NCBI GenBank assembly: GCA_963716725.1
Contig: CAVQUB010000001.1
Coordinates: forward strand, 96,001-160,000
Direction: 5' to 3'
Length of the DNA: 64,000 nucleotides
DNA from: an uncultured delta proteobacterium
GTDB taxonomy: Bacteria > Myxococcota_A > Polyangia > Polyangiales > Polyangiaceae
Under the pieces are notes generated by a model. That model had not been told where the DNA came from. It did not search any database and saw nothing but the letters and a program-made list of their open reading frames with translations. Both the position numbers and the translations under genes were made by a program. Of the stretch, positions 4,945-38,706 are shown in pieces (the stretch's first letter is position 1; each line of letters begins with the position of its first letter).

Positions 4945-6300
4945 GTGGACAGTTCAGGGCGCGTCGGGCGCTACGTCATTTTCGAGGAAATCGCCGCGGG
5001 CGGCATGGCCACGGTGCACCTTGCACGCCAACGCGGGGAGGCAGGGTTTGAGCGCACGGTTGCCATCAAACGTTTGCACCCGGCGCTGGCTCGGGATCCG
5101 GAAGCCGCCGAGGCGTTCGCCAACGAAGCGCGCCATGTGTCGCGCGTCATGCACGCGAACGTGGTACCCGTCCTGGATGTAGTTCGCGAGGATGGGCAAC
5201 TGGCCCTGGTGATGGAACTCGTGGTCGGCGCACCGCTGTCCGCCCTGGCGAGACAAGCACGTCTGAGCGGAGCACGCTTGCCGCCAAGCGTCGTCGTCGC
5301 CATCGTCTCCGGCATGCTACGCGGACTGCACGCGGCGCACTGCGCTCACGACGAGCAGGGCAATGCACTCCTTCTCGTACACCGAGATGTGTCCCCGCAG
5401 AACGTCTTGGTCGGTGTGGATGGGGTGGCGCGCGTAGTGGACTTCGGCATTGCAAAGGCGATGGCGAAGAGCACCACGACGCGGGGGCAACTCAAGGGCA
5501 AACCGGGATATATGTCACCGGAACAATTGCGCGGCGAACGGCTCGATGCCCGCACCGATATCTACGCGGGCGCGGTCGTGCTGTGGGAGGCGCTGACGGG
5601 GCAGCGACTTTTTGCTGGGGGTACCGACCAAGCCGTCGCCCGCAAGATCCTGGAAAAGGCCGTAGATGCACCGTCCCGGCTGGAGCCCGCGTTGCCGAAT
5701 GCGCTCGACATGCTCACGTTGAGGGGCCTGGCTCGAGGCCCGGCGGACCGCTTCGACACGGCGCTCGCTTTTGCCGAGGCGCTGGAACAGGCAGTGCGCC
5801 CTGCGTCGGCGTCGGAGGTGGCCGCGCTCGTGCGCCGGCTTTGTGGCGAGGAACTGCGAGTCCTGGAAGCGGCGAAGCGACGCACCGAGCCGGATCCGTC
5901 CGATGCTGCCGTCGTGGCGCCTCCCGCGTCGAATGAAACGGCCGGTAACACCTGGGCATACGTGGCGCTGGTCGCCACGGTCTTACTGGCGTCAGTGGGG
6001 ATCGGCCTTGGCTTCGGGTCCGACACGTCGCCAGCAGAAGCACCGCCCTCCGTGACACAGGCCGGCGCCGCCGAGACGGAACCGGGACCATCCCTCCCCG
6101 TTGCAAGCGCAGCTCCGCCGGCGGACGCGGCAGCTGCGGCGGTGACTTCTGCGGCGGCGGCCAAGACGCCCGCGGTCCCCCCCGCGCGGCAGGTTTCGAG
6201 CCCAGCGCCCCGCGTGCTTGCCAGCGCGAAACGCGATTGCGATCCGCCGTACATCGTGGACGCTGACGGCTACCATCGCATGAAACCGCAGTGTTTGTAG
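4945..6300 (+). CDS. Membrane Hanks-type Ser/Thr protein kinase
   Basis: GGMATV, VAIKRL, HRDVSPQN, DFGIAK, YMSPEQ; TM helix; Pro/Ala linker; C-terminal CDPPYIVDADGYHRMKPQCL. Confidence 0.95.
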   Translation: MDSSGRVGRYVIFEEIAAGGMATVHLARQRGEAGFERTVAIKRLHPALARDPEAAEAFANEARHVSRVMHANVVPVLDVVREDGQLALVMELVVGAPLSALARQARLSGARLPPSVVVAIVSGMLRGLHAAHCAHDEQGNALLLVHRDVSPQNVLVGVDGVARVVDFGIAKAMAKSTTTRGQLKGKPGYMSPEQLRGERLDARTDIYAGAVVLWEALTGQRLFAGGTDQAVARKILEKAVDAPSRLEPALPNALDMLTLRGLARGPADRFDTALAFAEALEQAVRPASASEVAALVRRLCGEELRVLEAAKRRTEPDPSDAAVVAPPASNETAGNTWAYVALVATVLLASVGIGLGFGSDTSPAEAPPSVTQAGAAETEPGPSLPVASAAPPADAAAAAVTSAAAAKTPAVPPARQVSSPAPRVLASAKRDCDPPYIVDADGYHRMKPQCL

Positions 6301-6369
6301 CCGCGCCGCCTTGAACGGTGCTGCCGCGGCTTCTCGTCCATTCTCGACCGCGCTAGCGTCGCCCCGGTA

Positions 6370-7206
6370 GTGGACCTTCGTTTCGCATTTGGCATCGCTT
6401 GCGCCTGCATGCTCACCGCGGGAGGGCTCCGCGCGGAGGAGGAACAGGCCTGCGTGACGGCCTACGACGAAAGCCAACGCGCGCGACGCTCCGGCCAGTT
6501 GCTTCGGACCAGAGAGCTGCTCCTCAGCTGTGCTCAGGAGAGCTGCCCAGCTCCCATCGTCAAGGCGTGCACGCGCTGGTTGGCAGATGTCACCGCCAGC
6601 ATTCCGACGTTGGTGGTGGGAGCAAAGGACGCAGAGGGACGCGACTCCATCGACGTACGGGTCTTCGACGGCCAGGTGGTGCTTGCCGACAGGTTGGATG
6701 GGCGCGCCGTGATGCTCGACCCGGGGGCGCATGAGCTGCGTTTTGTCTTCCCAAACGGCAGCGTCGTCGTGGAGCGCGTTCTGGTACGGGAGTCCGAGAA
6801 GAACCGCGTCGTGACGGCGCAGCTGCCTGGTCCGAAGAAAGCGCTGGCGCGCAAGCAGCCACGCGCTGTGCAGAACGGCACCCGAGGTGATCACCAAGAA
6901 ACGACGCCTGGGCCACCGGTAGTCACGATCGTGCTCGGCGCGGTCGGGGCGGTCGCTCTTGCGTCTTTTGGGTATTTCGGTATCGGTGCACAACGCGAGG
7001 CCGACCATCTTGACGCCACGTGTGCTCCCAACTGCCCCAGAAGTGATACCGACGCGATCAAGAACAAGGCCCTGATCGCGGACATCTCTCTCGGTGTTGG
7101 GCTCGCCAGCTTTGCCGGCGCGACGTATTTTTGGGTGACCGCGGCGCCAGGGGCGAGCACTGCGGGGACTGGCGTCACTTCCGTGGGCGTGGCCGGGCGG
7201 TTCTGA
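6370..7206 (+). CDS. Secreted Cys-helical (TPR-like) + PEGA-like protein
   Basis: Signal peptide, CVTAYDESQRARRSGQLL..CP..C.RW, LDPGAHELRF, hydrophobic hairpin with CAPNC, terminal GRF; paralog of 23519-24376. Confidence 0.8.
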   Translation: MDLRFAFGIACACMLTAGGLRAEEEQACVTAYDESQRARRSGQLLRTRELLLSCAQESCPAPIVKACTRWLADVTASIPTLVVGAKDAEGRDSIDVRVFDGQVVLADRLDGRAVMLDPGAHELRFVFPNGSVVVERVLVRESEKNRVVTAQLPGPKKALARKQPRAVQNGTRGDHQETTPGPPVVTIVLGAVGAVALASFGYFGIGAQREADHLDATCAPNCPRSDTDAIKNKALIADISLGVGLASFAGATYFWVTAAPGASTAGTGVTSVGVAGRF

Positions 7207-7235
7207 ACGCGTCGTGCTGGGTGTATGGTCGCTGC

Positions 7236-8567
7236 ATGCCGTCGGCCCCGCCGGATGTCACCGCTACGCTGCAGAAAGCGCGCACCGCGCTCGGCGAACT
7301 CCCGCGTTTCGCGTTGCAGGTGCTGGAAGGGCCTGATCGCGGCAAGCGCTGGTTGCTCGATGCGCAGCAGCCAGGGCGCATCTTGATCGGAACGGGCCCC
7401 GCCTGCGCATTTCGCCTGTCGGACCAGCACGTTTCGCGACGCCACCTTGCGCTCGAGACCGACGGCAACGAGTTGCTCCTGACGGACCTGGGTTCAACGA
7501 ACGGGACGCGGGTGGGCGGTGTGCGCGTGATCGAGGCGATGCTTTCCGGTAGTGCACGCGTGCATTTGGGTGACACCACCTTGGGCGTCGAGCCGATTGC
7601 ATCGGAGACGGCGGACAAGCTCTCGCCGGATACGACCTTCGGCAGGTTGGTTGGGCAGAGCGTTGCGATGCGGCGCCTGTATCCACTCTGCGACCGCCTC
7701 TCGTCGAGTGACGTTCCCGTGCTGGTCGAGGGCGAGACGGGAACGGGCAAGGAACTCCTGGCAGAAGCACTGCACGACAAGAGTGACCGTGGTACCGGCC
7801 CCTTCGTGGTATTCGACTGCGCAGCGGTCACGCCGTCGCTGCTCGAGTCGCATCTTTTCGGACATGAGCGCGGGGCATTTACCGGTGCCACTGCAACGCG
7901 CAAGGGGGTCTTTGAGCTTGCTTCAGAGGGCACGCTCTTCATCGACGAAATCGGTGATCTGGATATCGCGCTGCAGTCGCGACTGCTGCGCGCCATCGAG
8001 CGCGGAGAGGTCTGCCGCGTTGGAAGCGAGCGATGGCAGACCGTGGACGTGCGCATCATCGCCGCCACGCGTCGCGATTTGGACAAGGAAGTAGCGGCCG
8101 GGCGTTTTCGTGACGACCTCTTCTACCGCTTGGCTGTGGGGCGTTTGGAGTTGCCACCTCTACGCAGGCGCCACGGCGACGTGGGGCTGCTGGCCCGACA
8201 CTTCTGGGACCAATTGGCGGGGACCGAACGACCGCTGCCCTACGAACTGTTCGAGCGCTTCGAGGAGTACTCCTGGCCTGGCAACGTGCGTGAACTGCAC
8301 AACGCAGTGGCGCGCGCTGCCGCCCTCGGGGACCTGGCCGAGTTCGACATGGATGCCAAGGGTGACACGTCCGATGATTTGGTCGAACGTGTGTTGGCGC
8401 TCGATTTGCCGCTGCCGCGAGCCAAACAAAGGCTGCTTGTCGAATTCGAGCGCCGCTACGTCGAACGCGTGCTGGCGCGATATGGCGGCGATGTGGCAAG
8501 GGCAGTGCAGGCTTCGGGAATCGCGCGACGGTACTTCAACCTGCTACGCGCGCGACATCGTCAGTAG
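7236..8567 (+). CDS. FHA-domain sigma54 enhancer-binding protein
   Basis: FHA (VSRRH, DLGSTNGT), [29 protein letters not shown]-terminal HTH. Confidence 0.95.
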   Translation: MPSAPPDVTATLQKARTALGELPRFALQVLEGPDRGKRWLLDAQQPGRILIGTGPACAFRLSDQHVSRRHLALETDGNELLLTDLGSTNGTRVGGVRVIEAMLSGSARVHLGDTTLGVEPIASETADKLSPDTTFGRLVGQSVAMRRLYPLCDRLSSSDVPVLVEGETGTGKELLAEALHDKSDRGTGPFVVFDCAAVTPSLLESHLFGHERGAFTGATATRKGVFELASEGTLFIDEIGDLDIALQSRLLRAIERGEVCRVGSERWQTVDVRIIAATRRDLDKEVAAGRFRDDLFYRLAVGRLELPPLRRRHGDVGLLARHFWDQLAGTERPLPYELFERFEEYSWPGNVRELHNAVARAAALGDLAEFDMDAKGDTSDDLVERVLALDLPLPRAKQRLLVEFERRYVERVLARYGGDVARAVQASGIARRYFNLLRARHRQ

Positions 8568-9589
8568 CTCAGCAAAGTCGTTGCGCCCGTTGCCGGGTCG
8601 AGCGTCAGGATACGGCCGTCCGATTCCATGAGGAGGGGCGGCTGCCCCGGACGGACGATCAAGTTGGGAGCATTGACTGGAACGCCGGCATCGAGGGCGA
8701 CGGACACGCTACGTCTCGCTTGCTGCTTGGTGTCGAAAACCTCGAGGGTTGACGGCGCCCGGTACAGGTACGCCGCGCCCTCCGCAATCGCCAACGCTCG
8801 CACTCTCCCGCCGGCGCTTCCCTCCGCGACACCCTCGGCCACAAGGCTGCCGTTGGGGATCTTCCCGAGCTCCCCGGTGGTGGAGTCCGCGTACCAAACT
8901 GCATCTGCCGTGGTCGCGAGCACGAAGGGGCCTTCCGAGGGCAAAGCCGTGGCGTCACATTGGCTTTTCGTCAGAGTGGCGATGCCGTCTAGGCTGATAC
9001 CGTCGACTGAGAGCAACACAGTTCCACTGGCGTTCATCACGGAGTCTGCCGGGTCGGGCCAAAACGTCGCCGACGCCAGGTTTGGACAAAGCAGGCCGAC
9101 CCTCGTGTCTGTTCCGACCTTGCCGGTTTTCGGGTCGATGGGATAGGTCGCGCCTTCGAAGGTAAAACCGTCCCACAAATGCGCGCGCCAGGATCCGTCT
9201 GACAGGCGCGCGATGCTACGGACGTCGCGCAATGCCGGGCCGAAGCCCGCGGTGTGTGGCGTGCCGTTCGCGTCTTCGATCCACCCCGCGCGAATCGTCC
9301 GCTGTCCGGTCTGGAGATCGACGCCCAACACCGCGCCCTGATCGAGAGCACCGTGAACGCGCACCGCCAGCAGCAACTCACCTGCGTCGACAAAGCCTCC
9401 CACGATTTCCCGCTTCGGCAGCCGGTCCCAAGGGATGACGACGCCGGCTCCGACGCAGCCGGGCTTTACTTCGGCAGCGCAGCCGGTTTTGCCTCCGGAG
9501 CCTCCTTCCGAGAGGCGATCCAGATCCAGTGTCACCGTGCAACCACTTGCGTTGAGCAAAGCGAACCCGAGGAAGCTGGCAAGGCGCAT
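8561..9589 (-). CDS. Lipoprotein, probable beta-propeller
   Basis: Lipobox ASGC; IVGG..ELLLAVR..GAVLGVDLQTGQRT shared with the neighbour. Confidence 0.75.
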   Translation of the reverse strand: MRLASFLGFALLNASGCTVTLDLDRLSEGGSGGKTGCAAEVKPGCVGAGVVIPWDRLPKREIVGGFVDAGELLLAVRVHGALDQGAVLGVDLQTGQRTIRAGWIEDANGTPHTAGFGPALRDVRSIARLSDGSWRAHLWDGFTFEGATYPIDPKTGKVGTDTRVGLLCPNLASATFWPDPADSVMNASGTVLLSVDGISLDGIATLTKSQCDATALPSEGPFVLATTADAVWYADSTTGELGKIPNGSLVAEGVAEGSAGGRVRALAIAEGAAYLYRAPSTLEVFDTKQQARRSVSVALDAGVPVNAPNLIVRPGQPPLLMESDGRILTLDPATGATTLLSY

Positions 9590-9591
9590 GG

Positions 9592-10770
9592 TCAGAAGCT
9601 GATCACGTTGTTGTTGCCGTTGGCCGGGTCGTACACGACGACTGCGCCATCGATGACCAGGACCAGGGCCGCCAAGGTTGGATGCGAAAAAACGAGCTGC
9701 CGCGTCTTGGGCTCCGTGCGCGCCGGGCCCGTGTCTTTCGCCAAAACCCGTCGCTGCCCGGTCGCGCGGCTAACCTCGACGAGACGGAAAGCGTTGAGTA
9801 GTTCACCACCCGCGCCAAACGCGAACGAGTCGTTCACGGCCAAGTGCGCGCTACCGATGGGATTGCCCTCGAAGGCCGGCAGCTTCGCCGTGGATGCAGA
9901 AACGACCATCGATTTGCCGCTGGTTGTGTTGAAGGTGACCAGGTTGCTGCCGAACTGATCGACCAACCACAACTCCCCAGCCTGCCAGTGGATACTCTCC
10001 ACGCTCGCTTCCATGGGCACCTGGCCAACCAACTCGCATTGCTCACCAAAGATGCGCACGATCCACTCGGCTTGTATGTTCTGGCCGATGACGTAGGCAC
10101 TGCTGTCCGGAAGCACCGCGGGGCGTGCGGTTGACTGCACTTGGAGCGCGTCCGGCAGCACCTGAACGCATTTGTCCCCGATCGACCGTGTGGTCCGGTT
10201 TCCGCTGCCAGCTTCAACGTCTAGCACGAAGCCAGAAAATCCCTTGAATGGAGGAAGCAGCAACGCGAACACGTTCCCAGAGCTGCTCACGCCGACGCCC
10301 GAGAAGCCAAAGAAGCCGTCCCCCTCACCCTGGCCGGCGAAGCTTCCTCCTGGGGTGCGCAGCGAGCCACTGATCAGTCGACGCTGCCCGGTTTCGAGAT
10401 CCACGCCCACGATCCCGCCCTCGCCGCCGGAGCCATCACGCCGAACGCCAATGAGCAGTTCTTGGCCGTGAATCGCGCCACCGACGACGTCGAGTCGCAT
10501 CTCTCCGAACTCGCTGCGCCAGTCAATGACCAGGCCCTCGCCGATCGTGCCCGGCTGCAGCGTATCCACTGTTCGGCACCGGTCGTTGGTGCTGTGTACT
10601 GGGTCCATGCACGGCACGAGCGTCGGGGCAGGAAGCGCACCGGCACCGAGTCCTGCGTCCAAGGGGCCGCCGCTGGACTGGCCGCTGTCCACGAACACCG
10701 AGCATGCTTCCCCAAATAGGGCAGCCGCGGCTGTCATCGTGGCGAGATGCGCGAGCAAACGGCGTGACAT
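9592..10770 (-). CDS. Lipoprotein, paralog of 8561-9589
   Basis: ATG 10770, leader ending GEAC; VVGG..ELLIGVR..GGIVGVDLETGQRR. Confidence 0.75.
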   Translation of the reverse strand: MSRRLLAHLATMTAAAALFGEACSVFVDSGQSSGGPLDAGLGAGALPAPTLVPCMDPVHSTNDRCRTVDTLQPGTIGEGLVIDWRSEFGEMRLDVVGGAIHGQELLIGVRRDGSGGEGGIVGVDLETGQRRLISGSLRTPGGSFAGQGEGDGFFGFSGVGVSSSGNVFALLLPPFKGFSGFVLDVEAGSGNRTTRSIGDKCVQVLPDALQVQSTARPAVLPDSSAYVIGQNIQAEWIVRIFGEQCELVGQVPMEASVESIHWQAGELWLVDQFGSNLVTFNTTSGKSMVVSASTAKLPAFEGNPIGSAHLAVNDSFAFGAGGELLNAFRLVEVSRATGQRRVLAKDTGPARTEPKTRQLVFSHPTLAALVLVIDGAVVVYDPANGNNNVISF

Positions 10771-10930
10771 GTTCAAGCGAGCGTTGCGTGAGGCCACCGC
10801 AGAGTCTGCCGTCGAAGCTCGGGTTGGTCCAGTCGCAGAGCAGACTTCGTGCGGAGGCGGGTCTGCGCCCGGGGACGATTGGATTCGCGCCGAGATCCGC
10901 CAGATCCCGGAACGTGCCGGCCCGCGGGCG

Positions 10931-10979
10931 GCGGGATCCCGCAGATCCCGCCGTGGATGCGCGCGCGCGGGATCCCGCG
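10931..10979. promoter_or_regulatory. Two GCGGGATCCCGC palindromes (10931-10942, 10967-10978) plus extra GATCCCG half-sites; candidate activator binding sites
   Basis: Perfect palindromes in a divergent intergenic region just upstream of a sigma54 motif. Confidence 0.5.
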
Positions 10980-10989
10980 GGGTTCTCCG

Positions 10990-11005
10990 CGGCACAGGCC
11001 TTGCT
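10990..11005 (+). promoter_or_regulatory. sigma54 -24/-12 promoter
   Basis: CGGCACAGGCCTTGCT fits GGCAC-N5-TTGC, upstream of ATG 11063 with GAGGA RBS. Confidence 0.8.
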
Positions 11006-11062
11006 CAGGGGTGGCGCACATCGCGACGCGCACGCAGTGCGTCGCCCAGCGAGGAACCGCTT

Positions 11063-12601
11063 ATGAAGCATCGTAGTCGCCACGTCCGTTCACTTCTGCT
11101 CAGTGCCCTTGGTTTGCCAGTGTTGGTTTTCGCCTGCGCCAGCGATGACACCGGCGCCGGCAGGCCTTCAGTGGCACAGACCCCCGGCCAGCAGCTGTGC
11201 GATTCGTTGAAGAAGAACATCACAGCCTGCGGCGCCAGCACCCCTTGCGACGACGCTTTGGTGCGCGATTGCGCCAGCGTCGTGGACATGATGAGCGAGA
11301 ACTATCTGTTCACGACGAAGGGGTGTTTGGAAAGCGGCGGCAGCCCGGCCTCCTGTTTGGCTTCGTCGTTCAAAGGGCTGACGCCGAGTCAGGCACATCA
11401 GAGCTTCGCAAAGACGTTTTGTGGCGAATGCCTTGGCGGAGTCGTGCCCGCGTGTGACGCTCTGTTCTTCGGGCAGGGCGGAAGCATCCCCGACGAACTG
11501 AAAGTTGCGGGAGCGCTGATCTTGCCGCTGGGTGATGGCTTGGTCAGCCAAATCGAAAGTGAGTGCGCCAGGAAGAACCCGCTGACATGCGCGGCGCAGT
11601 TCTCGAGTTGCGCGCAAGGCGTGCTGGCCACTCAAGCGCTGCCCCAAGATACCCTCGCATGTCTCGTCGACGGACTCGTCAACGGCGATACCAGCGGGAA
11701 GACCTGTTCAGGCACCGGCGGCGCCGGAGGCGCATCCGGCTTTGGGGGCACGTCCGGATCGGGCGGCATGTCCGGCGGAGGCGGCGTTGGCACCGGCGGT
11801 TCGGGCACGGGTGGCGTTGGCACCGGTGGCATCGGCGGTTCGGGCACGGGTGGCGTTGGCACCGGTGGCATCGGCGGTTCGGGCACGGGTGGCGTTGGCA
11901 GCGGTGGCATCGGCGGTTCGGGCACGGGTGGCGTTGGCAGCGGTGGCATCGGCGGTTCGGGCACGGGTGGCGGTGGCGTCGGCGGCACCGGCGGCGGGGC
12001 CGGAAACTGCAGCAACGTGAGCGCGTTCAGCTGCGGCGCGTCCGACAAGTATTGCGACGCCGGGAGTTGTTCCAAGTGCGCCAGCGGCAAGCTGAACTGC
12101 AACGGAGTGGCCGGCTGCGAATGCGCCGGAACCTGCAACGGGACGTCGTGCTCCACGTGTACGGATCCAGGACCCGAACCCAACAACAGCATCGCGCAGG
12201 CTTCGCCCGCTTGCGCCAAGGCACCGTGCAATACGCTCGATTGCAATGCCCTGGGCGGCGGCAGCATAGCCGGGGTGGTCAAGCCAGGGGACACGGACTT
12301 CTTCACCTACAACGGCATCGACGACTTGTGCGAAGCCGCGCCTTCGGTCAGCACTCAATCGAGCGGAGTCAAGGCGTGCGTGTTTGCCAAGTGCAAGAAC
12401 GGCGCGAGCGCATTCAAGAGCTGCGCAAAGGGCCTGACGGAAAGTGAAGGCGCCCTCAAAGGCTGCTGCACATCGAAGCCGGGCGAAGCCAAGATGAATA
12501 TCGATTGTCCAGGATTGAACGATTCCGCGACGGTGTACATGCGTGTCACCGGCACGAATGCCAACGCTTGCACGGCATACGACTTGACGTACGACTTCTA
12601 G
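11063..12601 (+). CDS. Cys-rich lipoprotein with Gly-rich linker
   Basis: Lipobox VFAC, Cys-rich N and C domains, EPNNS motif, Gly repeat linker. Confidence 0.85.
   Translation: MKHRSRHVRSLLLSALGLPVLVFACASDDTGAGRPSVAQTPGQQLCDSLKKNITACGASTPCDDALVRDCASVVDMMSENYLFTTKGCLESGGSPASCLASSFKGLTPSQAHQSFAKTFCGECLGGVVPACDALFFGQGGSIPDELKVAGALILPLGDGLVSQIESECARKNPLTCAAQFSSCAQGVLATQALPQDTLACLVDGLVNGDTSGKTCSGTGGAGGASGFGGTSGSGGMSGGGGVGTGGSGTGGVGTGGIGGSGTGGVGTGGIGGSGTGGVGSGGIGGSGTGGVGSGGIGGSGTGGGGVGGTGGGAGNCSNVSAFSCGASDKYCDAGSCSKCASGKLNCNGVAGCECAGTCNGTSCSTCTDPGPEPNNSIAQASPACAKAPCNTLDCNALGGGSIAGVVKPGDTDFFTYNGIDDLCEAAPSVSTQSSGVKACVFAKCKNGASAFKSCAKGLTESEGALKGCCTSKPGEAKMNIDCPGLNDSATVYMRVTGTNANACTAYDLTYDF
11795..11970 (+). 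repeat. 39-bp coding tandem repeat (GGSGTGGVGTGGI), about 4 copies
   Basis: ggcggttcgggcacgggtggcgttggcaccggtggcatc repeated. Confidence 0.9.
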
Positions 12602-23518: not shown

Positions 23519-24376
23519 TCAGAAGTGACCCGTGACTCGAAGCTGAGGCATGCCGGCCCGAGCGCCGGACGAGAGCGCGATCGTGCCCGAGTCGTCCTGC
23601 TGCCAGATAACCATGGCTCCACTCAGGGCGACCGCCCCAACGGCCGCAGAGATCCCACCTGCCCACCACAGCGTCCGAATGCCGTCCACGTCGTCCTCAG
23701 AACACGTCGGCTTGCAGGAATCGTCCAGCTCTGCACGCTTGGCGTGTCCGACGACACCGAGCGCGCCGCCGGTGACTAGACCAGCCAATCCCACGGCCCC
23801 CAGGATGTACGCTGCGCTGGGGATCCCAGCATGAGTCTCGGCCTTGGCTGCCGGCGCTCTCACAGGGTGTTCGGCAGGACGTCGTTTGGGCTGACCAAAC
23901 GCCACAGGCAGTTTGTGAGTCGCACGCCCGGGCGCCAGCTGGACAGTGCGGCGCAACGGATCGCTTCCGCTCAGCTCGAAGGTCAACTCATGCTCGCCCG
24001 GATCAAGCTCGATCAAGTCGCCGACATGTGCTGCCAACAGCCGACCTGCTTCAGTGACACGCACCTCCCGAGTGGGTTTGCCCTCGGCATCGAGTGCGGA
24101 GACCCGCAGTCGTGGGATGAGTGCTTCTACCTCCGCCCGCCAGCGATCGCAGTCCTGGACCAGGGCATCTGGACAGCTACTCTGACAGGTGAGGAGCTGA
24201 GCCCGTGCGACCATTAGCTTTCCCGCTGCCCGTTGGCGCTGGGCTTCTTCGTAGGCGCCGGCGCACAGCCCCTTGTCGCTGGCTAGCGCCGGAGAGGCAG
24301 CGAGCCAGAGCGCTCCCATGATCACAATGCTGAGAGCGCTCCGGACGATTCGTGCGCTCGCAGCTGCGGTCACCAT
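23519..24376 (-). CDS. Secreted Cys-helical (TPR-like) + PEGA-like protein
   Basis: Signal peptide, CAGAYEEAQRQRAAGKL..CP..DCDRW, LDPGEHELTF, CKPTC, terminal GHF. Confidence 0.8.
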   Translation of the reverse strand: MVTAAASARIVRSALSIVIMGALWLAASPALASDKGLCAGAYEEAQRQRAAGKLMVARAQLLTCQSSCPDALVQDCDRWRAEVEALIPRLRVSALDAEGKPTREVRVTEAGRLLAAHVGDLIELDPGEHELTFELSGSDPLRRTVQLAPGRATHKLPVAFGQPKRRPAEHPVRAPAAKAETHAGIPSAAYILGAVGLAGLVTGGALGVVGHAKRAELDDSCKPTCSEDDVDGIRTLWWAGGISAAVGAVALSGAMVIWQQDDSGTIALSSGARAGMPQLRVTGHF

Positions 24377-24425
24377 CCTTCAAATCATGCCAGCCCCAGT
24401 GAGCCGCCACAACACTTCGCGTCGG

Positions 24426-24472
24426 TGACAGCTGTCAACCGTGGGGAGACAGCTGTCGCCCCGGGGGTGATA
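24426..24472. promoter_or_regulatory. Two GACAGCTGTC palindromes 21 bp apart; candidate upstream activating sequence
   Basis: tgacagctgtca and agacagctgtcg about 80-125 bp upstream of the predicted sigma54 start. Confidence 0.6.
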
Positions 24473-24523
24473 CGCGCAGGGACGCACGCATTCGTCCGCG
24501 CTGGTCCAACGACGGGTCCGTTG

Positions 24524-24539
24524 AGGCACGAACCTTGCG
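24524..24539 (+). promoter_or_regulatory. sigma54 -24/-12 promoter
   Basis: AGGCACGAACCTTGCG fits GGCAC-N5-TTGC. Confidence 0.75.
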
Positions 24540-24551
24540 AAGGCGAACGGC

Positions 24552-26042
24552 ATGAGAACGACCACACTGCGATGGGGCGCACTCGGCGTGTTGTTGAGCG
24601 CATGCAGCTTGGGGTCCGTTGGCGAAGAGAATCACGCCGGCGCCGCAGACGCTGGAGCGGCGGGGGCAGGTGGGTCGTCAGGCACGGGTGGCAGCGCCAA
24701 CACAGGCGGTGGGGAGACAGGTGGAGCCGCGGGCGCCGGCGGGAGCGCAGGCGCGTCAGGTGGAGCTGCGGGAACCGGCGGGAGCGCAGGCGCGCCAGGT
24801 GGAGCCGCGGGCGCCGGCGGGAGCGCAGGCGCGTCAGGTGGAGCCGCGGGCGCCGGCGGGAGCGCAGGCGCGTCAGGTGGAGCCGCGGGAACCGGCGGAG
24901 ACGCAGGCGTCGTCGTGACGTCGACAATCTCGGCAACGGCAGTGTCGAGCAGTGCCATTCAGGTGACCGTGAAGCTGAACAAGGCCGCACCTTGCTTGGT
25001 GCAATTCCGTCCCCAAGGCACGAGCACTTGGAGCGACAAACTCCCTTCCGAGAACAGCAGCATTCACGGCGTCAACCCGCCGCACGTGCAGACCGTCTCC
25101 GGACTGTCTCCGGGTGCCTGGGAAGTGCGAGCTCTCGATCATTTGGCGGGCAGCTACACGACGAAAACGTTGGTGGTCAACTTGTCCAACGTGGTTGGCG
25201 GGCTCTCCAAGCAGGGCCTTACGTTCACTACCATTCCGAGCGGTGTAGCCTATGGAGCATGGAGCACCCAACGCTGGACCACGATGTTTGGCAACGTTGC
25301 GCCCAACTACGGCGGCGGAATGGGCCAGGTGAAAACGCAGGTGCTGGACGGCACACTCGCCATAATCCATCGCGTCACACCCACCGCACCACCCGGGACG
25401 AGCCCGGCGCTTCCAAAGAACGGCTCGGACCGCGTCGACGGAGCCTGGAACTTGCCCGCGCAGCCACAAAAACGCTTCGCGCTGATGCAATCGGTTCGGC
25501 TACCCAACGACTTTGCTGCGGGTTGGAAAGAGCAATCGGGCAAGCTGGGCTGGGGGCTCGGTGGAGGTTCCGTGCCCTCGGGTGGCAAGCCGCTCAAGGA
25601 TGGCTTCTCGGCGCGGTTGTCTTTTCGGGGCAACAAAGCCCAGCCGGACACGTCGTCCGTCGTGTATCCAATTCTCTATGTCTACTCAGCGGATTGGCCA
25701 GGACAGTACGGTGAGGACGTCCACTTCGTCGACCCGGCGACGACGAAGGACTTCGAGCTGAAGCGCGGAACCTGGGTCGAATTCGCGTGGGAGGTAGTGA
25801 TGAACAGCGCGCCCGGAAAGAGCGACGGTTCGCTGCGCGGCTGGGTCAATGGCGTGCTGATGATCGAGCGGAAGAACAAGCAGTGGTTCTCCCAGTTGGC
25901 TTCTGGTGATGCCGCTCCGCATGTCGACCGCATCATCTTGTCTACCTTTCATGGCGGCGCGACCAGTGACTGGGCGCCGTCACACGCCAACGAGATTGCC
26001 TTCTCCGGCCTGCACTTCGGTGTCCCCAACCCGCCCTGGTGA
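24552..26042 (+). CDS. Gly-linker lipoprotein with PL14-like polysaccharide lyase domain
   Basis: Lipobox LSAC; SGKLGWGLGGG, GFSARLSFR, YVY, MNSAPGKSDG, STFHGG..WAP. Confidence 0.75.
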   Translation: MRTTTLRWGALGVLLSACSLGSVGEENHAGAADAGAAGAGGSSGTGGSANTGGGETGGAAGAGGSAGASGGAAGTGGSAGAPGGAAGAGGSAGASGGAAGAGGSAGASGGAAGTGGDAGVVVTSTISATAVSSSAIQVTVKLNKAAPCLVQFRPQGTSTWSDKLPSENSSIHGVNPPHVQTVSGLSPGAWEVRALDHLAGSYTTKTLVVNLSNVVGGLSKQGLTFTTIPSGVAYGAWSTQRWTTMFGNVAPNYGGGMGQVKTQVLDGTLAIIHRVTPTAPPGTSPALPKNGSDRVDGAWNLPAQPQKRFALMQSVRLPNDFAAGWKEQSGKLGWGLGGGSVPSGGKPLKDGFSARLSFRGNKAQPDTSSVVYPILYVYSADWPGQYGEDVHFVDPATTKDFELKRGTWVEFAWEVVMNSAPGKSDGSLRGWVNGVLMIERKNKQWFSQLASGDAAPHVDRIILSTFHGGATSDWAPSHANEIAFSGLHFGVPNPPW

Positions 26043-26101
26043 AGTGCAAAGCAACGCCCTAGCTCGCTTGCCACAAACAAACGCATACGACTGGAATCCA
26101 G

Positions 26102-27487
26102 ATGAGCCTTCGCATCACCAACTTCGAGACACTCGCGCTGCTTGCGACGCTAACTTGCATGGGCTGCGGCGCGGAATCAGATAGCACAGGAAGCGCTGCG
26201 GGCGGTCAGGGGTCCGGCGCGGGCGCTTCCGGCCAGAGCGGCGACGGTGGTGTTGGTAGCGGCGGCTCTCCCTCTGGTGGAATGGGAGGAAGCGGTGGCG
26301 CCGGTACGGGCGGGGCTGCGACTGGCGGAGCGAGCGGCGGCGGCGGGACACCTGCGCCGCCCCAGGTAAGCAGCGATCTAAAGAGCAAGTATGACTTTGC
26401 ACTGATCTTCGACGCGGACTTCTCGCAAACTGCGACTCTCGGAGCCGGAGCGCTGTGGCGTCGCGAAAACATGTCCGCGAGCCACAACTCCAACCAGCAC
26501 AAACACGCTGACGGCCGCCGGCACGCAGCTTGGTACGACCAGTATCAGGAACAGACCGCGTTCTTCCGGGATGGCTATCTAGTCCAAGCGGGCCACGTCG
26601 CGGACGCGAGCCTGTCAGGATTTCAAAGTCGCGACTCCGGCAACGCCCCGCGAAACCATTCCTATGCTGATCCCGATCCGCGGGACGATGGGAAAGGCAC
26701 GGTCAACTTCGCCGATTTCGAGCTCCACACCTCGTGGTTCGACACCTTTGCGTTGAAGTGGTCCCAGGGAAAGAGCGTGCCTGTTCTACCCACGGACAAG
26801 TTGCTGCCGAAAGAACAGTACACCGGGGCACCGGGCACGACGGACACACCCTCCCCGAACATTACCTTCTTGCCGGGAAGCTACTTTGAAATCGAGGTGA
26901 GCTTCGAAGGCATGAAAGCCTTGTCGCATCGCCACTCGCTTTGGTTGATGCCGGCGACGCCGGAAAACCAAGCCTACGACTCAGATTCGAGCAACGGAGT
27001 GGAGATCGACATTTACGAGCACGAGCTGGTGGAGGACGGTGAGCTTTCTCTATCAGAAAACGAGATGTTGCTCATGAAGTCGATTGGCGGCTCGACCAGC
27101 CCGCCAGTCACCAAGAACGAGCTGAAGGGCGATGGGGCTACGAACATCCGGGTGAAGGGCATCAACTCGGGGTGGCACAAGATCGGCTTGCTGTGGACGA
27201 AGGGTGAAGTGATTTGGCTGGTGGACGGCGAAGAGCTCGTCCGCGATTCCCAGCTGGTGCCACAAGTTCCAATGTATTTGCTGCTCACTCGCGAGGCGAA
27301 TACCGGCGCCGTCGACCCGAGCACTGCGGGCCCCCAAGAGCTCAAATCCATGGGTGCCGCGATCCCGCTCGACCCTGGCTTGTTCGGGCGCAACGTAGCG
27401 ACTCCGGACAACCGAGCACTGGTCAAAGCAGGCAGCGACGAAGTTCGCGTTCGCTACGTCCGAGCCTGGCGTGCCAGCGCCAAGTGA
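26102..27487 (+). CDS. Gly-linker lipoprotein with GH16-like glycoside hydrolase domain
   Basis: Leader ending CMGC; SLWLMP, catalytic EIDIYE, WHKIGLLWT..WLVDG, VRYVRAW. Confidence 0.8.
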   Translation: MSLRITNFETLALLATLTCMGCGAESDSTGSAAGGQGSGAGASGQSGDGGVGSGGSPSGGMGGSGGAGTGGAATGGASGGGGTPAPPQVSSDLKSKYDFALIFDADFSQTATLGAGALWRRENMSASHNSNQHKHADGRRHAAWYDQYQEQTAFFRDGYLVQAGHVADASLSGFQSRDSGNAPRNHSYADPDPRDDGKGTVNFADFELHTSWFDTFALKWSQGKSVPVLPTDKLLPKEQYTGAPGTTDTPSPNITFLPGSYFEIEVSFEGMKALSHRHSLWLMPATPENQAYDSDSSNGVEIDIYEHELVEDGELSLSENEMLLMKSIGGSTSPPVTKNELKGDGATNIRVKGINSGWHKIGLLWTKGEVIWLVDGEELVRDSQLVPQVPMYLLLTREANTGAVDPSTAGPQELKSMGAAIPLDPGLFGRNVATPDNRALVKAGSDEVRVRYVRAWRASAK

Positions 27488-27553
27488 GCTCATCGCCTGA
27501 TCGGGAACCAAATCGGGTCGGTGAATCCGTGGGCATTGCGGTGGTCCCGGCGC

Positions 27554-29176
27554 TCACAAGCATTCGCGTTTGACCTGTCGGAATCCACCTTTGTCCTCGA
27601 TCCACGGGGGATCACAGTTAGCGGTCTTGGGTCGCCCGGGCCGTTTCGGCGTGGGCGCGAGTCGCGGCTTTGAGCTTGGCGCGGCGGAGGCGGAAGACGC
27701 CGCGCTGTCGGGCGGTGGCGCCGCGCTATTCGGGGCCGTTGGCGATGCGGCGACGGCTTCGGCCGGTGTGGCGACGGTTGCGGCCGCCGTCGACTTCGCG
27801 CCCGGCTGCGGCTCGGCTTCCGTCGAAGGGGTCTCAGGTGCGTCGCGCACGAACTGCATCGCAAGCGCGAGCACCAGGAGTGCCAGCGCAGCCAGGCCGC
27901 CCGCCAACACCCGGCGGCTTCGAGCACGTGTTGGCGCGGGAGCTCCCAGAGCCACCCCATTCGGCGCCGCCGGTCTGACCACGCCGACTTCGAGGGTGGC
28001 GGTGCCAGCTCCCGCCGGTCGGCCCCGGGGCGACGGCGGAGGTCGGGGTGGTGGCGCGTCGGCGGTTGCGTGAACGGACAAGGTCGGTACGTGTCGAGCG
28101 GCAAGCGGAGCGTTCGGGGCGACCCGCGGCGAAGCTCCACTCGGCGGCGGCGTGGCGCCTGGCGCGCCGGGGGCAACGCCACCTCGGACGTAGCGTGCGC
28201 TGCTGCGCTCAATCGCGCGCACTTTCTCAGCGCGTCGGTCCAGTTCATCGCCCACGAGCGCCCGCATCCAGTCCGCGACTTCCCGCGCGGAAGCGGGTGT
28301 CACGGCGCACTCCAGCGCAATGGCCATGTCGCGCGCTGAAGCAAAGCGGTTGGTCGGGTCTTTGGCGAGGCCCTGAAGCACCACGGCATCGAGTTGGGCA
28401 GGAATACTCGACACCAGCTGACTCGGCGCCGGTACCGCTTCATGCAGGATCTTGGAAACAATGCCCGCTTCACTCTTTGCTGCGTGCAAACGCCGAGCGG
28501 TCAGGGTCTCCCACAGCACGACGGACGCCGAGTAGATGTCGGCTTGAGCCGTGACTTCGCGATCCTGCAACTGCTCAGGCGGCATGTAGCGGAGCTTGCC
28601 CTTCAGTTGACCGTCCCGGGTGCTCTGCAAACGCACGGTGGCTTTTGCGATGCCAAAGTCGACCACGCGGGCCACCCCGTCTGCGCCCACCAGGATGTTG
28701 TCGGGAGAAACGTCGCGGTGAATGATGTGCAGCGCCGCGCCGTTTTCATCGGTGGCCTCGTGAGCCGCATGCAAACCGAATAGCGTGTCCGTCGCGGCGC
28801 GTACGGCAATCGTCTTCGGTACGCGAGTTCCCGCGGCCTTCGCCGCCTTGAGCAGTTCCGCTAGTGTTGCCCCCAATACGTACTCCATCACCAAGAACAA
28901 CTCGTCGTCGGAAGCAACCACATCTTCCGGAGCGACGACGTTCGGGTGACGGATTCTCGACGCCAGCCTAGCCTCGTCCACCAACATCGCGACGAACTCA
29001 GGATCCCGGGCGAAGTGAGGGTGCAGGCGCTTGATGGCGACTGCACGTGCAAACCCGGCGGCGCCGGACAGCACGCCCAGATGGATGACTGACATGCCTC
29101 CCGACGCCAACTCGTCAAAGAGGAGGTAGCGACCCAACTCGGTGCCGACGACCTCGGGCGTACTCACAAGACCCAT
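27554..29176 (-). CDS. Membrane Hanks-type Ser/Thr protein kinase
   Basis: GGMS, VAIKRL, HRDVSPDN, DFGIAK, YMPPEQ; TM; C-terminal CDPPWIEDKGGFRQVKRECL. Confidence 0.95.
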   Translation of the reverse strand: MGLVSTPEVVGTELGRYLLFDELASGGMSVIHLGVLSGAAGFARAVAIKRLHPHFARDPEFVAMLVDEARLASRIRHPNVVAPEDVVASDDELFLVMEYVLGATLAELLKAAKAAGTRVPKTIAVRAATDTLFGLHAAHEATDENGAALHIIHRDVSPDNILVGADGVARVVDFGIAKATVRLQSTRDGQLKGKLRYMPPEQLQDREVTAQADIYSASVVLWETLTARRLHAAKSEAGIVSKILHEAVPAPSQLVSSIPAQLDAVVLQGLAKDPTNRFASARDMAIALECAVTPASAREVADWMRALVGDELDRRAEKVRAIERSSARYVRGGVAPGAPGATPPPSGASPRVAPNAPLAARHVPTLSVHATADAPPPRPPPSPRGRPAGAGTATLEVGVVRPAAPNGVALGAPAPTRARSRRVLAGGLAALALLVLALAMQFVRDAPETPSTEAEPQPGAKSTAAATVATPAEAVAASPTAPNSAAPPPDSAASSASAAPSSKPRLAPTPKRPGRPKTANCDPPWIEDKGGFRQVKRECL

Positions 29177-29300
29177 GAAGCTTCTTGACGGTGAGCATGC
29201 CCGGTAGCGGACGCGTCGGCCAGGGGTGCCAGACTAGCCCACGCGATTGCCGCCCGGGTTGACAGCGCCCTGCGCGTAGCGAAGAAGGAGCAGACTCAGA

Positions 29301-30623
29301 ATGAGCAACAGTGCAAACGCTGCCACGCAAACGACCATCTACCGGGACCGCGTGGAGATGCCGGAACTCGAGCTCGAGGTCACGCAGCCGGATGGTGTGT
29401 CCCAGGGGCATCGCCTGGGATTGGAGGCCCTTGTGATCGGGTCTGGGTCCGACGCAGACGTCGTACTGGTGGACGATTCCGTGTCGCGCAAACACTGCGA
29501 ACTGAGGATGAGCTCCCGGGGGGTCGAGGTGTCGGATCTCGACAGCAAGAACGGCACCTTCGTCAATGCAGTGCGCGTGGGGCGCGCTCTGCTCGAACCC
29601 GGCCAGATTTTGCAGGTCGGGAGAAGTCGGCTCACTCTGACTGCGCGTGCGGGCCGGGTCAGCATGCCCCTGACCATGGACTCGCAGTTCGGAGAAGCGT
29701 CCGGCGTGTCGGTTGTCATGCGGGCAATGTTCGCGCGCTTGGTGCGAGCGGCAGCCAGCGAGGAAACCGTGCTCTTGCTCGGGGAGTCGGGTACTGGCAA
29801 GGAACTGCTCGCGCGTGCCATCCACGAACGCAGCAAGCGCAGTGCCGGTCCTTTTGTCGTGCTCGACTGTAGTGCACTCGCGCCGACTTTGGTTGAAACG
29901 GAGCTTTTTGGACACGCGCGCGGCGCATTCACCGGAGCACTTCAAGTTCGCGAAGGCGTATTCGAGCAGGCCGGTGGTGGCACGGTGTTCATCGACGAGA
30001 TCGGTGAACTGCCCATGGACTTGCAGCCCAAAATGCTTCGGGCGCTGGAGTCCCGAGAGATACGACGCTTGGGGGAAAACGCGGTGCGCCCCATCGATGT
30101 TCGCGTTATCGCTGCAACACACCGGGATATCCGCGGGCGCGCCGTCAGCGGAGAGTTCCGGCAGGACCTGTACTATCGGCTCGCGGTGGTCGAGGCTGCG
30201 GTGCCTCCCCTGCGCGAGCGCAAAGACGACATTCCCATGCTCGTCGAGCGGTTCCTAGGCGAGCGCAAGCCACCGATGACGCTGCGCGATCTTCCACCAA
30301 ACACCCTGGCGCTGCTGTCGGCCCATGACTGGCCCGGGAATGTTCGCGAATTGCGTAACACGATCGCGCGGCTCGTCCTGTTTCCGGAAGCACCCGAAGC
30401 CGCCATTGCTTCGCTTCCACGGCAAGGTGATGCGACGGCTGCGCTCTTTTCACTGACCCTGGGCGATGCGCGGAGCGAAGTCGTCGCGCAGTTCGAGCAG
30501 AGCTATTTGGAGCGCAAGCTAGCCGAGCACGCCGGCAACGTGACCCACGCTGCCGAGTCCGCGGGTGTCTCGCGGCAGTTCTTTCATCGGCTGATTTCGC
30601 GGCACGGCATCGACCGCGAGTGA
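29301..30623 (+). CDS. FHA-domain sigma54 enhancer-binding protein
   Basis: [44 protein letters not shown]. Confidence 0.95.
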
Positions 30624-33971: not shown

Positions 33972-34022
33972 CGGGTTGGTGTGCCCGGGACGGACCCGGG
34001 CCGACACCGAAAGAGAACTCCG

Positions 34023-35426: not shown

Positions 35427-36223
35427 TGTACCGCAAGCACTTCGGCCTCACCCGCCACCCCTTCGCCAAAAACATCGAGCCCGACGAGCTCTTCGCCTCC
35501 GGTGCGCTCCGAGAACTCGACGCCCGGCTCGCCCATCTCCTCGACTTGCGCGGCATCGGTGTGGTCACCGGTGAGAGCGGCAGCGGCAAGACCACCGCGT
35601 GTCGGAAGATCGTCGCCGGTCTCCACACGGGTCTGCACCGCGTCCTCTACGTGTCGCTCACCACCGGCAACGTGATGGATCTCTACAAGACCATCGCCTG
35701 GGAGATCGGCCTACCCACCGAGCGCAACCGCGCCGCACTGTTCCGGCAGATCCGGACCGAGGTGACGCGGCTCTGCAGCGAGGCCCGGCAGAAACCGATC
35801 CTGATCGTGGACGAAGCTCATCACCTCAGGAGCGACGTGCTCGAGGACCTGCGCCTGCTCACCAACTACGCGATGGACTCCGACAACCGCCTCTGCCTGG
35901 TCCTCGTCGGACACCCGGAACTGCGCCGCCGCCTCGGCATGGCGGTGCACGAGGCGCTCTCGCAGCGCGTCGTCGTGCGCGCTCACGTCCCGGGTCTTGC
36001 CCGTGACGAGCTCGGCCCGTACCTCACGCACCTGCTCCGACTCGCCGGAACCGAGCTCGAACTCTTCGAGCCCGCAACCCAGGAGGCGATCTTCCAGGCG
36101 TCGAACGGCCTGCCCCGGAAGGTGAACCTGCTCGCTCACCACGCGCTCATGGCCGCCGCGCTCACCAAGAGCAGGACCGTCACGACCGAGCACATCCAGT
36201 CCGCCATGGCCGAAGTCACCTGA
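35426..36223 (+). CDS. ExeA-like AAA+ ATPase (transposition helper)
   Basis: MYRKHFGL..PF, GESGSGKT, LIVDEAH, GLPRKVN; TGATG coupling to the transposase. Confidence 0.92.
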   Translation: MYRKHFGLTRHPFAKNIEPDELFASGALRELDARLAHLLDLRGIGVVTGESGSGKTTACRKIVAGLHTGLHRVLYVSLTTGNVMDLYKTIAWEIGLPTERNRAALFRQIRTEVTRLCSEARQKPILIVDEAHHLRSDVLEDLRLLTNYAMDSDNRLCLVLVGHPELRRRLGMAVHEALSQRVVVRAHVPGLARDELGPYLTHLLRLAGTELELFEPATQEAIFQASNGLPRKVNLLAHHALMAAALTKSRTVTTEHIQSAMAEVT

Positions 36224-37919: not shown

Positions 37920-37933
37920 GGTCCGATGGATTG

Positions 37934-37949
37934 AGCAAACACCGTGCCA
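37934..37949 (-). promoter_or_regulatory. sigma54 -24/-12 promoter
   Basis: Minus strand TGGCACGGTGTTTGCT, full consensus. Confidence 0.85.
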
Positions 37950-37973
37950 GACGCTCGACACTCGGGCGCATAG

Positions 37974-38420: not shown

Positions 38421-38439
38421 CCGACGGGGGATGACGGGG

Positions 38440-38706
38440 GCCCGCTGCCATTGCGGCCACAGTCGGCGAAGCGCAACCCAGAGCAAACGGTCCGAGCGGG
38501 TGATCCGAGGCCGCTTCGCCTGTCGGTGGAGCACGGCCAGCTGGTGGCGCAGTGCGACGCTCTCGAGCGCGACGGACTGGTGAGAACGCAGGAAGGACAG
38601 GGCGGAGTGAAGCAGCGCAAGGAGGACCGCACGCATGGGGAACCGAGTCTCATCTCTTGCCGGGAAAGCGCAAGGACCCCACGACGCACTGGGTCGCCAC
38701 CCACAG
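38440..38706 (-). mobile_element. Repeat family A: left end and N-terminus of an integrase-core element
   Basis: Terminal ...gccacccacag; LESVALRHQLAVLHRQAKRPRITRSDRLLWVAL. Confidence 0.85.

Follow-up and report, generated by a model that had tools for sequence, protein, structure and literature searches.

How does a membrane kinase that has no sensor domain of its own receive a signal? This question is raised by a 64,000-nucleotide stretch of DNA (hereinafter the window; C1:96001-160000 of the draft genome G000, 7.89 Mb in 35 contigs), in which two sets of genes each combine a Ser/Thr kinase ending in a cysteine-containing tail (Cys tail), an unannotated membrane protein and a sigma54 activator with an FHA domain. 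An earlier note on this DNA had read these sets as a trans-envelope system, where an envelope protein acts on the tail of the kinase, the kinase on the FHA activator, and the activator on sigma54-dependent lipoprotein genes. The observation underlying the note is confirmed, and part of its interpretation finds support. What stands firm is a receptor cassette of kinase and partner, whose docking contact is modelled and shows covariation. We suggest that the window holds two of the seven copies of this two-gene cassette present in the genome, here extended by an activator; to the mechanism proposed below as a whole we assign a probability of roughly 55%.

The whole genome was translated in six frames and then searched for kinases, activators and partners. 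Sigma54 activators with an FHA domain are referred to as FHA-sigma54 activators (FHA-EBPs, for enhancer-binding proteins), and the kinase neighbour from the unannotated family, as the partner. Gene models were set using Pfam matches and alignments; the signal from G+C content at third codon positions is too weak at the G+C content of the window, about 66%. According to Pfam scans and translations, the two trios occupy positions 4945-8567 (module 1) and 23519-30623 (module 2). All three genes of module 1 are on the plus strand with short gaps between them. In module 2 the partner and the kinase are on the minus strand, the activator is on the plus strand and divergent from kinase 2, and two plus-strand lipoprotein genes (24552-26042 and 26102-27487) separate the partner from the kinase. 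The trios are paralogous, and thus the same three genes indeed occur twice in different order and orientation. The kinases are 54% identical over 299 residues (2e-97), their tails matching separately; the partners are 35% identical over the full length (2e-39), and the activators are 40% identical (7e-100).

Both kinases match the Pkinase profile (PF00069) with scores of 113.8 bits (kinase 1) and 112.4 bits (kinase 2) at a cutoff of 31.7. Their best NCBIfam likeness is to NF033483, at 247 and 232 bits, respectively, versus a cutoff of 450. A hydropathy scan yields one transmembrane segment per kinase, with basic residues on its N-terminal side in kinase 2. Since each kinase has a single such segment, the tail is placed outside the cytoplasm. 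No extracytoplasmic domain was found in these kinases beyond a Pro/Ala-rich linker and the 20-residue tail, which reads CDPPYIVDADGYHRMKPQCL in kinase 1 and CDPPWIEDKGGFRQVKRECL in kinase 2; this is the shared extracytoplasmic Cys motif that had been noticed at the ends of both proteins. C26, P29 and C44 are invariant in the alignment of 41 tails (alignment A2), and the two invariant cysteines probably close a disulfide hairpin. Two short open reading frames elsewhere in the genome, C8:315007-315576 (+) and C34:153614-154033 (+), end in the Cys tail with no kinase match; these frames may come from truncated or frameshifted kinases, or encode tail peptides that exist on their own.

Hanks-type kinases are recognized by the VAIK lysine, HRD, the catalytic-loop lysine (HRDxKxxN), DFG and (S/A)PE motifs. 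VAIK, HRD, the loop asparagine, DFG and SPE are all present in kinases 1 and 2. The catalytic loop itself reads HRDVSPQN in kinase 1 (5386-5409) and HRDVSPDN in kinase 2 (28730-28753 region), that is, the loop lysine is replaced by serine. The same replacement is seen in 37 of the 184 kinase matches of the genome, both window kinases included. The Lys-to-Ser substitution in the loop is conserved across a large kinase subclass.

Both partners have an N-terminal signal-like segment, a helical N-terminal domain, four conserved cysteines, a beta-sandwich and a terminal GRF or GHF, in agreement with the earlier description. Absent from that description is a membrane hairpin of two helices, also present in both partners, whose tip carries an invariant C-x3-C. 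The AlphaFold (AF2) model of partner 1 has a mean pLDDT of 83.7, exceeding 90 for residues 25-150. In this model, a three-helix domain (residues 25-77) holds the four conserved cysteines and is followed by a seven-strand sandwich (residues 80-151) and by two long helices, 184-217 and 224-257, with the invariant C218-x3-C222 (window 7021-7035) linking them. By prediction, the hairpin tip that carries the C-x3-C motif is cytoplasmic. The C-terminal end resembles a strand, with pLDDT below 50, and its last residues are mostly Gly-x-Phe (GRF at 7198-7206 in partner 1).

In total, the six-frame search of the genome yielded 184 kinase matches, 51 sigma54-activator matches and 16 FHA-sigma54 activators. 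The Cys tail ends seven of the 184 kinase matches. The partner profile A1, built from 39 homologues, finds 51 partner-like genes in this genome, exactly seven of them full-length, that is, including the four-Cys helical N-terminal domain. Each of the seven tail kinases has a full-length partner 0 to 3,175 bases away, and five pairs are directly adjacent. The four-Cys domain occurs only alongside tail kinases in this genome, the other 44 partner-like genes matching from the sandwich onward only. To extend the comparison, we took the 60 best full-length partner matches outside this genome together with 7 kb flanks. A kinase lies within 3.5 kb of the partner in 54 of these 60 loci, and five of the six loci with no kinase end at a contig edge. 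The strict tail pattern fits 42 kinases of these loci, and about eight further variant tails were counted by eye. Overall, a tail kinase is found within 3.5 kb in 53 of the 67 full-length partner loci. Clustering of the neighbouring genes revealed no further family common to many loci beyond the kinase, the partner and the activator; several large neighbour clusters looked like alternative frames of the genes for these three. The earlier note had proposed scoring co-occurrence of the whole trio with the tail kinases; the FHA-sigma54 activator is indeed enriched near them (see below), but what is conserved at the core is the pair of kinase and partner rather than the trio.

The note had also proposed a tail-partner complex model. 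Our model combines residues 22-160 of the partner, based on alignment A1, and the C-terminal 45 residues of the kinase, based on alignment A2. The cognate complex has an ipSAE score of 0.62 (0.62, 0.65 and 0.62 in separate runs), versus 0.01 for the best of three controls; at least 95% of contacts are common to the runs, and the tail pLDDT is at least 66. The mark used for this score is reached by 116 of 157 solved complexes and two of 215 mismatched pairs, which is a rough guide here as custom alignments were used. The tail is predicted to make contacts by C26, P29, Y30, residues 37-40, C44 and L45. The partner side of the predicted interface is formed by helix 1 (residues 25, 29, 32, 33, 36 and 37) and by the C59-P60 turn with helix 3 (residues 60, 62, 63 and 66); the nearly invariant partner residues Q36 and P60 are among the predicted contacts.

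Covariation of the two proteins provided a separate check, on data independent of the model. Fifty-three partners were paired with the tails of their own kinases, and mutual information with average product correction (MI-APC) was computed for a non-redundant set of 50 pairs. Among roughly 6,400 column pairs, the one that ranks first joins partner position 32 and tail position 40, a predicted contact; the pair 29/40 ranks 14th. Tyr32 of the partner is accompanied by Pro, Val, Ile, Leu or Met at tail position 40 in 32 of 33 pairs, and His, Ser, Asn or Ala at position 32, by Phe, Tyr or Trp in 20 of 20. The residues at the two positions swap sizes. The traits at partner position 32 and tail position 40 change nine and eight times, respectively, on a quick kinase tree. 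The covariation gives docking real, though not conclusive, support. Taken together, the strict pairing, the model passing its controls and the top covarying pair falling on a predicted contact favour the claim that the partner acts on the Cys tail, and the tail is predicted to contact the helical domain of the partner.

The partner matches no Pfam or NCBIfam model. According to Foldseek, its sandwich groups with transthyretin/CarboxypepD_reg-like domains, the fold group of PEGA. The PEGA profile (PF08308) matches neither window partner (P0003 and P0004), even at E up to 10, whereas it matches a relative (P0042) at 0.0089, and paralogues reach 40-93 bits. The sandwich is hence only PEGA-like, not PEGA by profile. 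No TPR match was found in P0003 or P0004 by the Pfam scan. Among 20 other kinase-adjacent paralogues scanned, 16 have TPR matches just before the PEGA region (two above the Pfam cutoff), and PEGA itself exceeds the Pfam cutoff in three. The look-alikes found by an atlas search are hypothetical proteins from Myxococcota. The wider family, for which neither Pfam nor NCBIfam has a model, is very large: representative clusters number 6,025 at E 1e-30, and 19,647 at 1e-10. Of 41 related genomes, 39 have matches to the A1 profile, and within the family of the window each genome has 10 to 55 of them. The full-length subfamily has a narrow range: a search at E 1e-40 found it in at least eight of 121 genomes across the phylum, nearly all from the window's own family, this number being a floor as 20 candidates per genome were scored in the phylum-wide sample. 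Two candidates were discarded in the course of these searches. An apparent kinase-partner fusion in the database (P0077) has its tail region out of frame and is probably a gene-calling read-through, and a search for related loci with P0003 alone gave a single weak match (L031), which is unrelated.

In the partners, the hydropathy scan shows membrane helices and a signal-like N-terminus. These predictions place the kinase tail and the N-terminal domains of the partner on the same, extracytoplasmic side. The predicted anchor of the partner consists of alpha-helices, as in an inner-membrane protein, and no outer-membrane component of the system was found. Hence neither the trans-envelope reading nor the analogy with cell-surface signalling is upheld. 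The latter would share with the present system the path from an extracytoplasmic signal to a dedicated promoter dependent on an alternative sigma factor, with sensor and regulator encoded in one cluster. It differs in having an outer-membrane transducer, an anti-sigma factor and an ECF (extracytoplasmic function) sigma factor: no TonB-dependent transducer, anti-sigma factor or ECF sigma factor was found among the Pfam matches of the 28 open reading frames in 1-33166, and the partner here is predicted to have an alpha-helical anchor.

Where would a signal received by the kinase go? Both window activators score high with Sigma54_activat (PF00158; 216.8 bits for activator 1 and 208.3 bits for activator 2, cutoff 20.2) and FHA (PF00498; 46.9 and 62.7 bits, cutoff 20.7), and both retain an intact GAFTGA loop, exactly as the earlier note had reported. 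For the C-terminal Fis-type helix-turn-helix, HTH_8 scores 20.6 bits in activator 2, below the cutoff of 22, and has no match in activator 1; the C-terminal regions of the two proteins align with each other. An FHA-sigma54 activator lies within 7 kb in 17 of the 67 full-length partner loci, and an activator of any kind is near in 26. The chance rate of linkage to an FHA-sigma54 activator was estimated as about 3% from 16 such genes in 7.89 Mb, so that the observed linkage is about eight times the estimated chance. In the own genome, an FHA-sigma54 activator is found within 10 kb of the two window pairs only; a third pair has an activator in which the query used found no FHA domain. Activator-linked pairs cluster on the quick kinase tree (eight changes versus 11.0 in shuffles, with five of 500 shuffles as low), and several well-conserved orthologue groups never carry an activator. 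Therefore the activator is an enriched, heritable option, not the rule, and the claim that the kinase acts on it stands for this option only.

The trio of module 1 has an orthologue with the same gene order in a congener (G004), with identities of 55% for the kinase, 71% for its tail, 50% for the partner and 68% for the activator. The genes flanking both modules encode lipoproteins with Gly-rich linkers, as the note had claimed; the genes at 8561-9589 and 9592-10770 are paralogues (25% identity, 4e-10). The note had further assigned sigma54 motifs to these genes, and this part holds to a lesser extent. With the consensus TGGCACG-N4-TTGCW (−24 GG and −12 GC, 12 positions), the sites of the modules (10990-11005 and 24524-24539) fit 10 of 12 positions, the second one being located 13 nt from the ATG; the corresponding start sites would be at about 11017 and 24550. 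One target is supported by conservation, namely the lipoprotein gene at 11063-12601. Its homologue in G004 (39% identity over the N-terminal domain, 3e-35) lies on the same strand as the orthologous kinase and immediately upstream of it. CGGCAC-N5-TTGCT precedes the gene in both the window and G004, the G004 form being CGGCACGCCGATTGCT, and an GGGATCCCGCAG(A/C)TCCCG element about 57 bases further upstream of the promoter is conserved in both genomes. The exact 18-mer of this upstream element occurs once in the genome, and the 18-base element shows no genome-wide repetition above the control rate (six matches versus four). The core GGCAC-N5-TTGC is present in eight of 26 loci with an activator versus two of 41 loci with none, the loci being kin and thus not independent. 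Judging from the conserved promoter and palindrome, the 11063-12601 gene is a likely target of activator 1, and the arrangement in G004 would create a self-activating four-gene unit. An activator with a sigma54-dependent lipoprotein gene as the output is plausible for module 1; for module 2 the case is weaker.

Two observations concern these promoters and genes. The homologous lipoprotein gene in G004 (L044:9149-10730, −) changes frame inside the Gly-rich repeat, so that the N- and C-terminal domains are in different frames; this may be an assembly slip. A perfect 12/12 sigma54 site, one of only eight in the genome, is found in the window at 37934-37949 (−); the ATG of a further lipoprotein gene with a Gly linker (36618-37919, −) follows about 15 nt downstream. 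The leader after this site would be very short, as at 24524.

We propose the following mechanism. The kinase, a single-pass Hanks-type Ser/Thr kinase, would expose only the Pro/Ala-rich linker and the 20-residue Cys tail. The partner would be a membrane-anchored periplasmic protein with a Cys-stabilised three-helix (TPR-like) domain, a PEGA-like sandwich and a two-helix membrane hairpin. The tail would dock on helices 1 and 3 of the helical domain, making the partner a sensor or co-receptor that acts on the kinase in trans. The sandwich may contact a cell-wall or polysaccharide ligand, and the occupancy of the partner may control clustering and autophosphorylation of the kinase. In subfamilies that carry an activator, both window copies included, the FHA domain would read the activated kinase, and the activator would then turn on a sigma54 promoter; in module 1 the target would most likely be the Cys-rich lipoprotein gene at 11063-12601.

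Several results, given in this and the next paragraph, weigh against this mechanism. Kinase-partner pairs duplicate as units, hence co-occurrence alone shows co-inheritance, not binding. In module 2 the partner and the kinase are split by two unrelated genes. The complex score is a measure of model confidence and comes from custom alignments. Only one independent 32/40 pair falls on well-supported branches, which leaves the phylogenetic test with no power, and thus the association in 52 of 53 pairs may count few events. Could the pairing then be plain paralogy, expanded families lying side by side with no functional link? Some adjacency is expected in a genome with 184 kinase, 51 activator and 51 partner-like genes. 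However, the pairing is specific, seven of seven between a seven-member kinase subclass and a seven-member partner subclass, it recurs in the 54 loci of other genomes, and it is accompanied by a covarying contact and a passing complex model; we consider this explanation very improbable. It is less improbable, albeit still unlikely, that the parts and the contact hold and information flows in reverse, or nothing is sensed at all, the partner serving as substrate or inhibitor, or else tethering the kinase to the cell wall or an envelope site, with the signal coming from elsewhere. The data give no direction of signalling, PEGA domains are treated as peptidoglycan-associating modules in passages of PMC7159879, and the invariant C-x3-C at the cytoplasmic tip of the partner hairpin could face the kinase domain. 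On the other hand, these kinases have no other extracytoplasmic domain able to sense, and the outer domains of the partner are its most confidently folded and most conserved parts. The kinase itself adds a further doubt. Among the 53 paired tail kinases, all but one show serine (HRD-x-S-P-x-N) instead of the catalytic-loop lysine, and such kinases may not be active in the usual way.

The output step is exposed to a different explanation: the pair is real, its output does not run through FHA activators, and control of the sigma54 lipoprotein gene is independent of the kinase. No activator is found within 7 kb in 41 of the 67 loci, nor within 10 kb of four of the seven pairs in the own genome; hence the activator cannot serve as output in general. 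Clustering of regulators is a feature of these genomes: 11 of the 16 FHA-sigma54 activators of the own genome have some kinase within 5 kb regardless of the tail, given 184 kinase matches, and the window activators are not each other's closest paralogues. The FHA domains are also unusual. Residues binding phosphothreonine in FHA domains, established in work on Rad53 and GarA, form the pattern G-R ... S-x-x-H ... N-G. The window domains keep SRRH/SRKH and S-x-NG, and the canonical phosphate-binding arginine at the GR position is replaced by threonine in activator 1 and by serine in activator 2; it is kept in 12 of the 25 FHA-sigma54 activators examined, and domains with no such arginine may not read phosphothreonine. 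The promoter evidence is generally weak as well. Sigma54 motifs are not enriched in the window (eight found versus 4.6 expected, with six of 100 shuffles reaching eight), and 10/12 matches occur genome-wide at 0.089 per kb, i.e. every 11 kb, rising to 0.13 per kb around FHA-sigma54 activators and 0.19 per kb around all activators. No homologue of the lipoprotein genes of 8561-10770 and 24552-27487 was found among the 60 loci of relatives, and therefore the proposed action of the activator on lipoprotein genes stands for the 11063-12601 gene only. In the case of module 2, single-protein queries in 25 and 12 relatives, respectively, gave no match to its partner (P0004, E 1e-40) outside the own genome and no match to its kinase (P0002, E 1e-100) closer than its paralogues. 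What speaks for an output through the activator is the conservation of the module 1 trio in G004, where gene order is kept, the activator is the best conserved member, and the sigma54-promoted lipoprotein gene lies just upstream of the kinase; the linkage well above the estimated chance and the clustering of linked pairs on the kinase tree point the same way. On this balance the different explanation of the output step seems to us improbable.

The proposed receptor cassette with an optional activator was then compared with known systems. [quoted passage not shown] To the extent covered by these excerpts, both systems combine a periplasmic accessory protein, a single-pass Hanks-type kinase and an FHA reader. 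A chain of the RtkS-PpkA crystal entry 9k1u is a weak Foldseek match to the partner model (E 0.02, 84 columns). The output of the T6SS pathway is a scaffold of the secretion machine, whereas here it would be a sigma54 activator; the kinase there has a folded periplasmic domain and here only the 20-residue Cys tail; and the partner here is membrane-anchored and unrelated in sequence. The kinase and FHA genes of that pathway belong to a T6SS cluster, with a PppA phosphatase; general Pfam scans of the window, not aimed at these families, turned up no T6SS or PP2C families.

The FHA-sigma54 activators themselves are not new. Jelsbak, Givskov and Kaiser are said to have catalogued the FHA-domain activators of Myxococcus xanthus in 2005 (PNAS 102:3010) and to have made the long-standing suggestion that Ser/Thr kinases feed them. 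The architecture of FHA, AAA+ and DNA-binding domains is the same; the present analysis differs by naming a specific kinase subclass with its cognate membrane partner, the docking contact predicted between them and a single conserved promoter as candidate target. PASTA kinases (PknB, StkP) are likewise single-pass Hanks-type kinases with an extracytoplasmic sensor directed to the cell wall; here PASTA repeats are absent, and sensor-like domains are encoded by a separate gene, joined by the proposed peptide docking. A parallel to the docking itself is provided by TPR co-chaperones, which clamp the C-terminal EEVD of Hsp70/Hsp90. In both cases a small helical-repeat domain would bind the extreme C-terminus of its client, the site here being periplasmic and Cys-stabilised. 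Our literature searches found no description of the partner family, of the tail, or of a kinase-to-FHA-activator pathway with a defined input. The system is a new form of kinase-FHA signalling, not a new kind of system.

The Cys tail may be one case of a broader arrangement. In the own genome, 41 of the 51 partner-like genes lie within 3.5 kb of a kinase; among the 44 sandwich-only genes this number is 34, and the kinases next to them end in NPYE, GF, SGL or otherwise. Such varied endings suggest a family of C-terminal docking peptides. Sandwich-only genes with TPR-like, PEGA and membrane hairpin regions are exemplified by C9:120709-123405, C5:522515-525103 and C15:601390-604255, and the other endings of kinases beside sandwich-only genes are NPYE, NPF, GF, SGL and DRK. 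Tentatively, the Cys-tail cassette could be one dialect of a general wiring code, in which much of the Ser/Thr kinase complement of these bacteria consists of split receptors whose only part outside the membrane, a short C-terminal peptide (Cys hairpin, NPYE, GF, SGL), is read by a cognate TPR-like/PEGA membrane co-receptor encoded next door. If so, matching of the peptide and the helical domain would insulate dozens of parallel kinases and give each its own sensor. Docking, if true, would explain how sensor-less kinases receive signals, and would provide a sequence-only rule that assigns sensors to kinases. Myxobacteria-like genomes encode at least 100 Ser/Thr kinases, almost none with both input and output known. 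The present locus offers a testable chain composed of a partner family, a docking tail, an FHA activator and a conserved sigma54 promoter with a candidate binding site. The coordinates are collected in Table 1.

Table 1. Features of the two modules and of the adjacent lipoprotein genes in the window.
Feature	Position	Strand	Support and remarks
Kinase 1, 451 aa	4945..6300	+	Pkinase 113.8 bits; transmembrane residues 340-358, then Pro/Ala-rich outer linker
Cys tail of kinase 1 (CDPPYIVDADGYHRMKPQCL, last 20 codons), predicted docking peptide	6238..6297	+	Alignment A2, complex model
Partner 1, 278 aa	6370..7206	+	AF2 model, Foldseek; no Pfam/NCBIfam match
FHA-sigma54 activator 1	7236..8567	+	Likely ATG 7236 inside open reading frame 7131-8567; FHA, AAA+ with GAFTGA, C-terminal helix-turn-helix region
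Lipoprotein of unknown function	8561..9589	−	Signal peptide and Cys; no Pfam match
Lipoprotein-like paralogue of the 8561-9589 gene	9592..10770	−	Likely start MSRRLL at 10770
Palindrome GGGATCCCG, two copies, candidate activator binding site	10933..10977	+	Distal copy inside the 18-base element kept in the congener locus
Sigma54-type −24/−12 element CGGCACAGGCCTTGCT	10990..11005	+	58 nt upstream of ATG 11063
Cys-rich lipoprotein with Gly-rich linker, best candidate target of activator 1	11063..12601	+	Homologue linked to the G004 trio; no Pfam match
Partner 2, 285 aa, architecture of partner 1	23519..24376	−	Full-length A1 profile match, 2e-76
Sigma54-like motif AGGCACGAACCTTGCG, weak	24524..24539	+	13 nt upstream of ATG 24552
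Lipoprotein, Gly-rich linker and polysaccharide lyase 14 domain	24552..26042	+	PF21294, 52.5 bits
Lipoprotein, Gly-rich linker, weak likeness to beta-glycanase	26102..27487	+	NF052454 E 0.0011, far under cutoff
Kinase 2, 540 aa, transmembrane residues 423-441	27554..29176	−	Pkinase 112.4 bits; Cys tail CDPPWIEDKGGFRQVKRECL at 27557-27616
FHA-sigma54 activator 2	29301..30623	+	Sigma54_activat 208.3 bits, FHA 62.7 bits

Other parts of the window contain two further features. A Mu-like transposase (rve, Mu-transpos_C) is encoded at 33972-36223 (+), followed by an AAA_22/TniB-like ATPase at 37916-38947 (−); an open reading frame beside this pair reads like a transposase remnant, and the G+C content of the 36-38 kb region is lower, 0.61. 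At 54342-57464 (+), in the most G+C-rich part of the window (0.71-0.74), a gene encodes a regulator-like protein of 1040 residues with AAA_16 and the Trans_reg_C DNA-binding domain.

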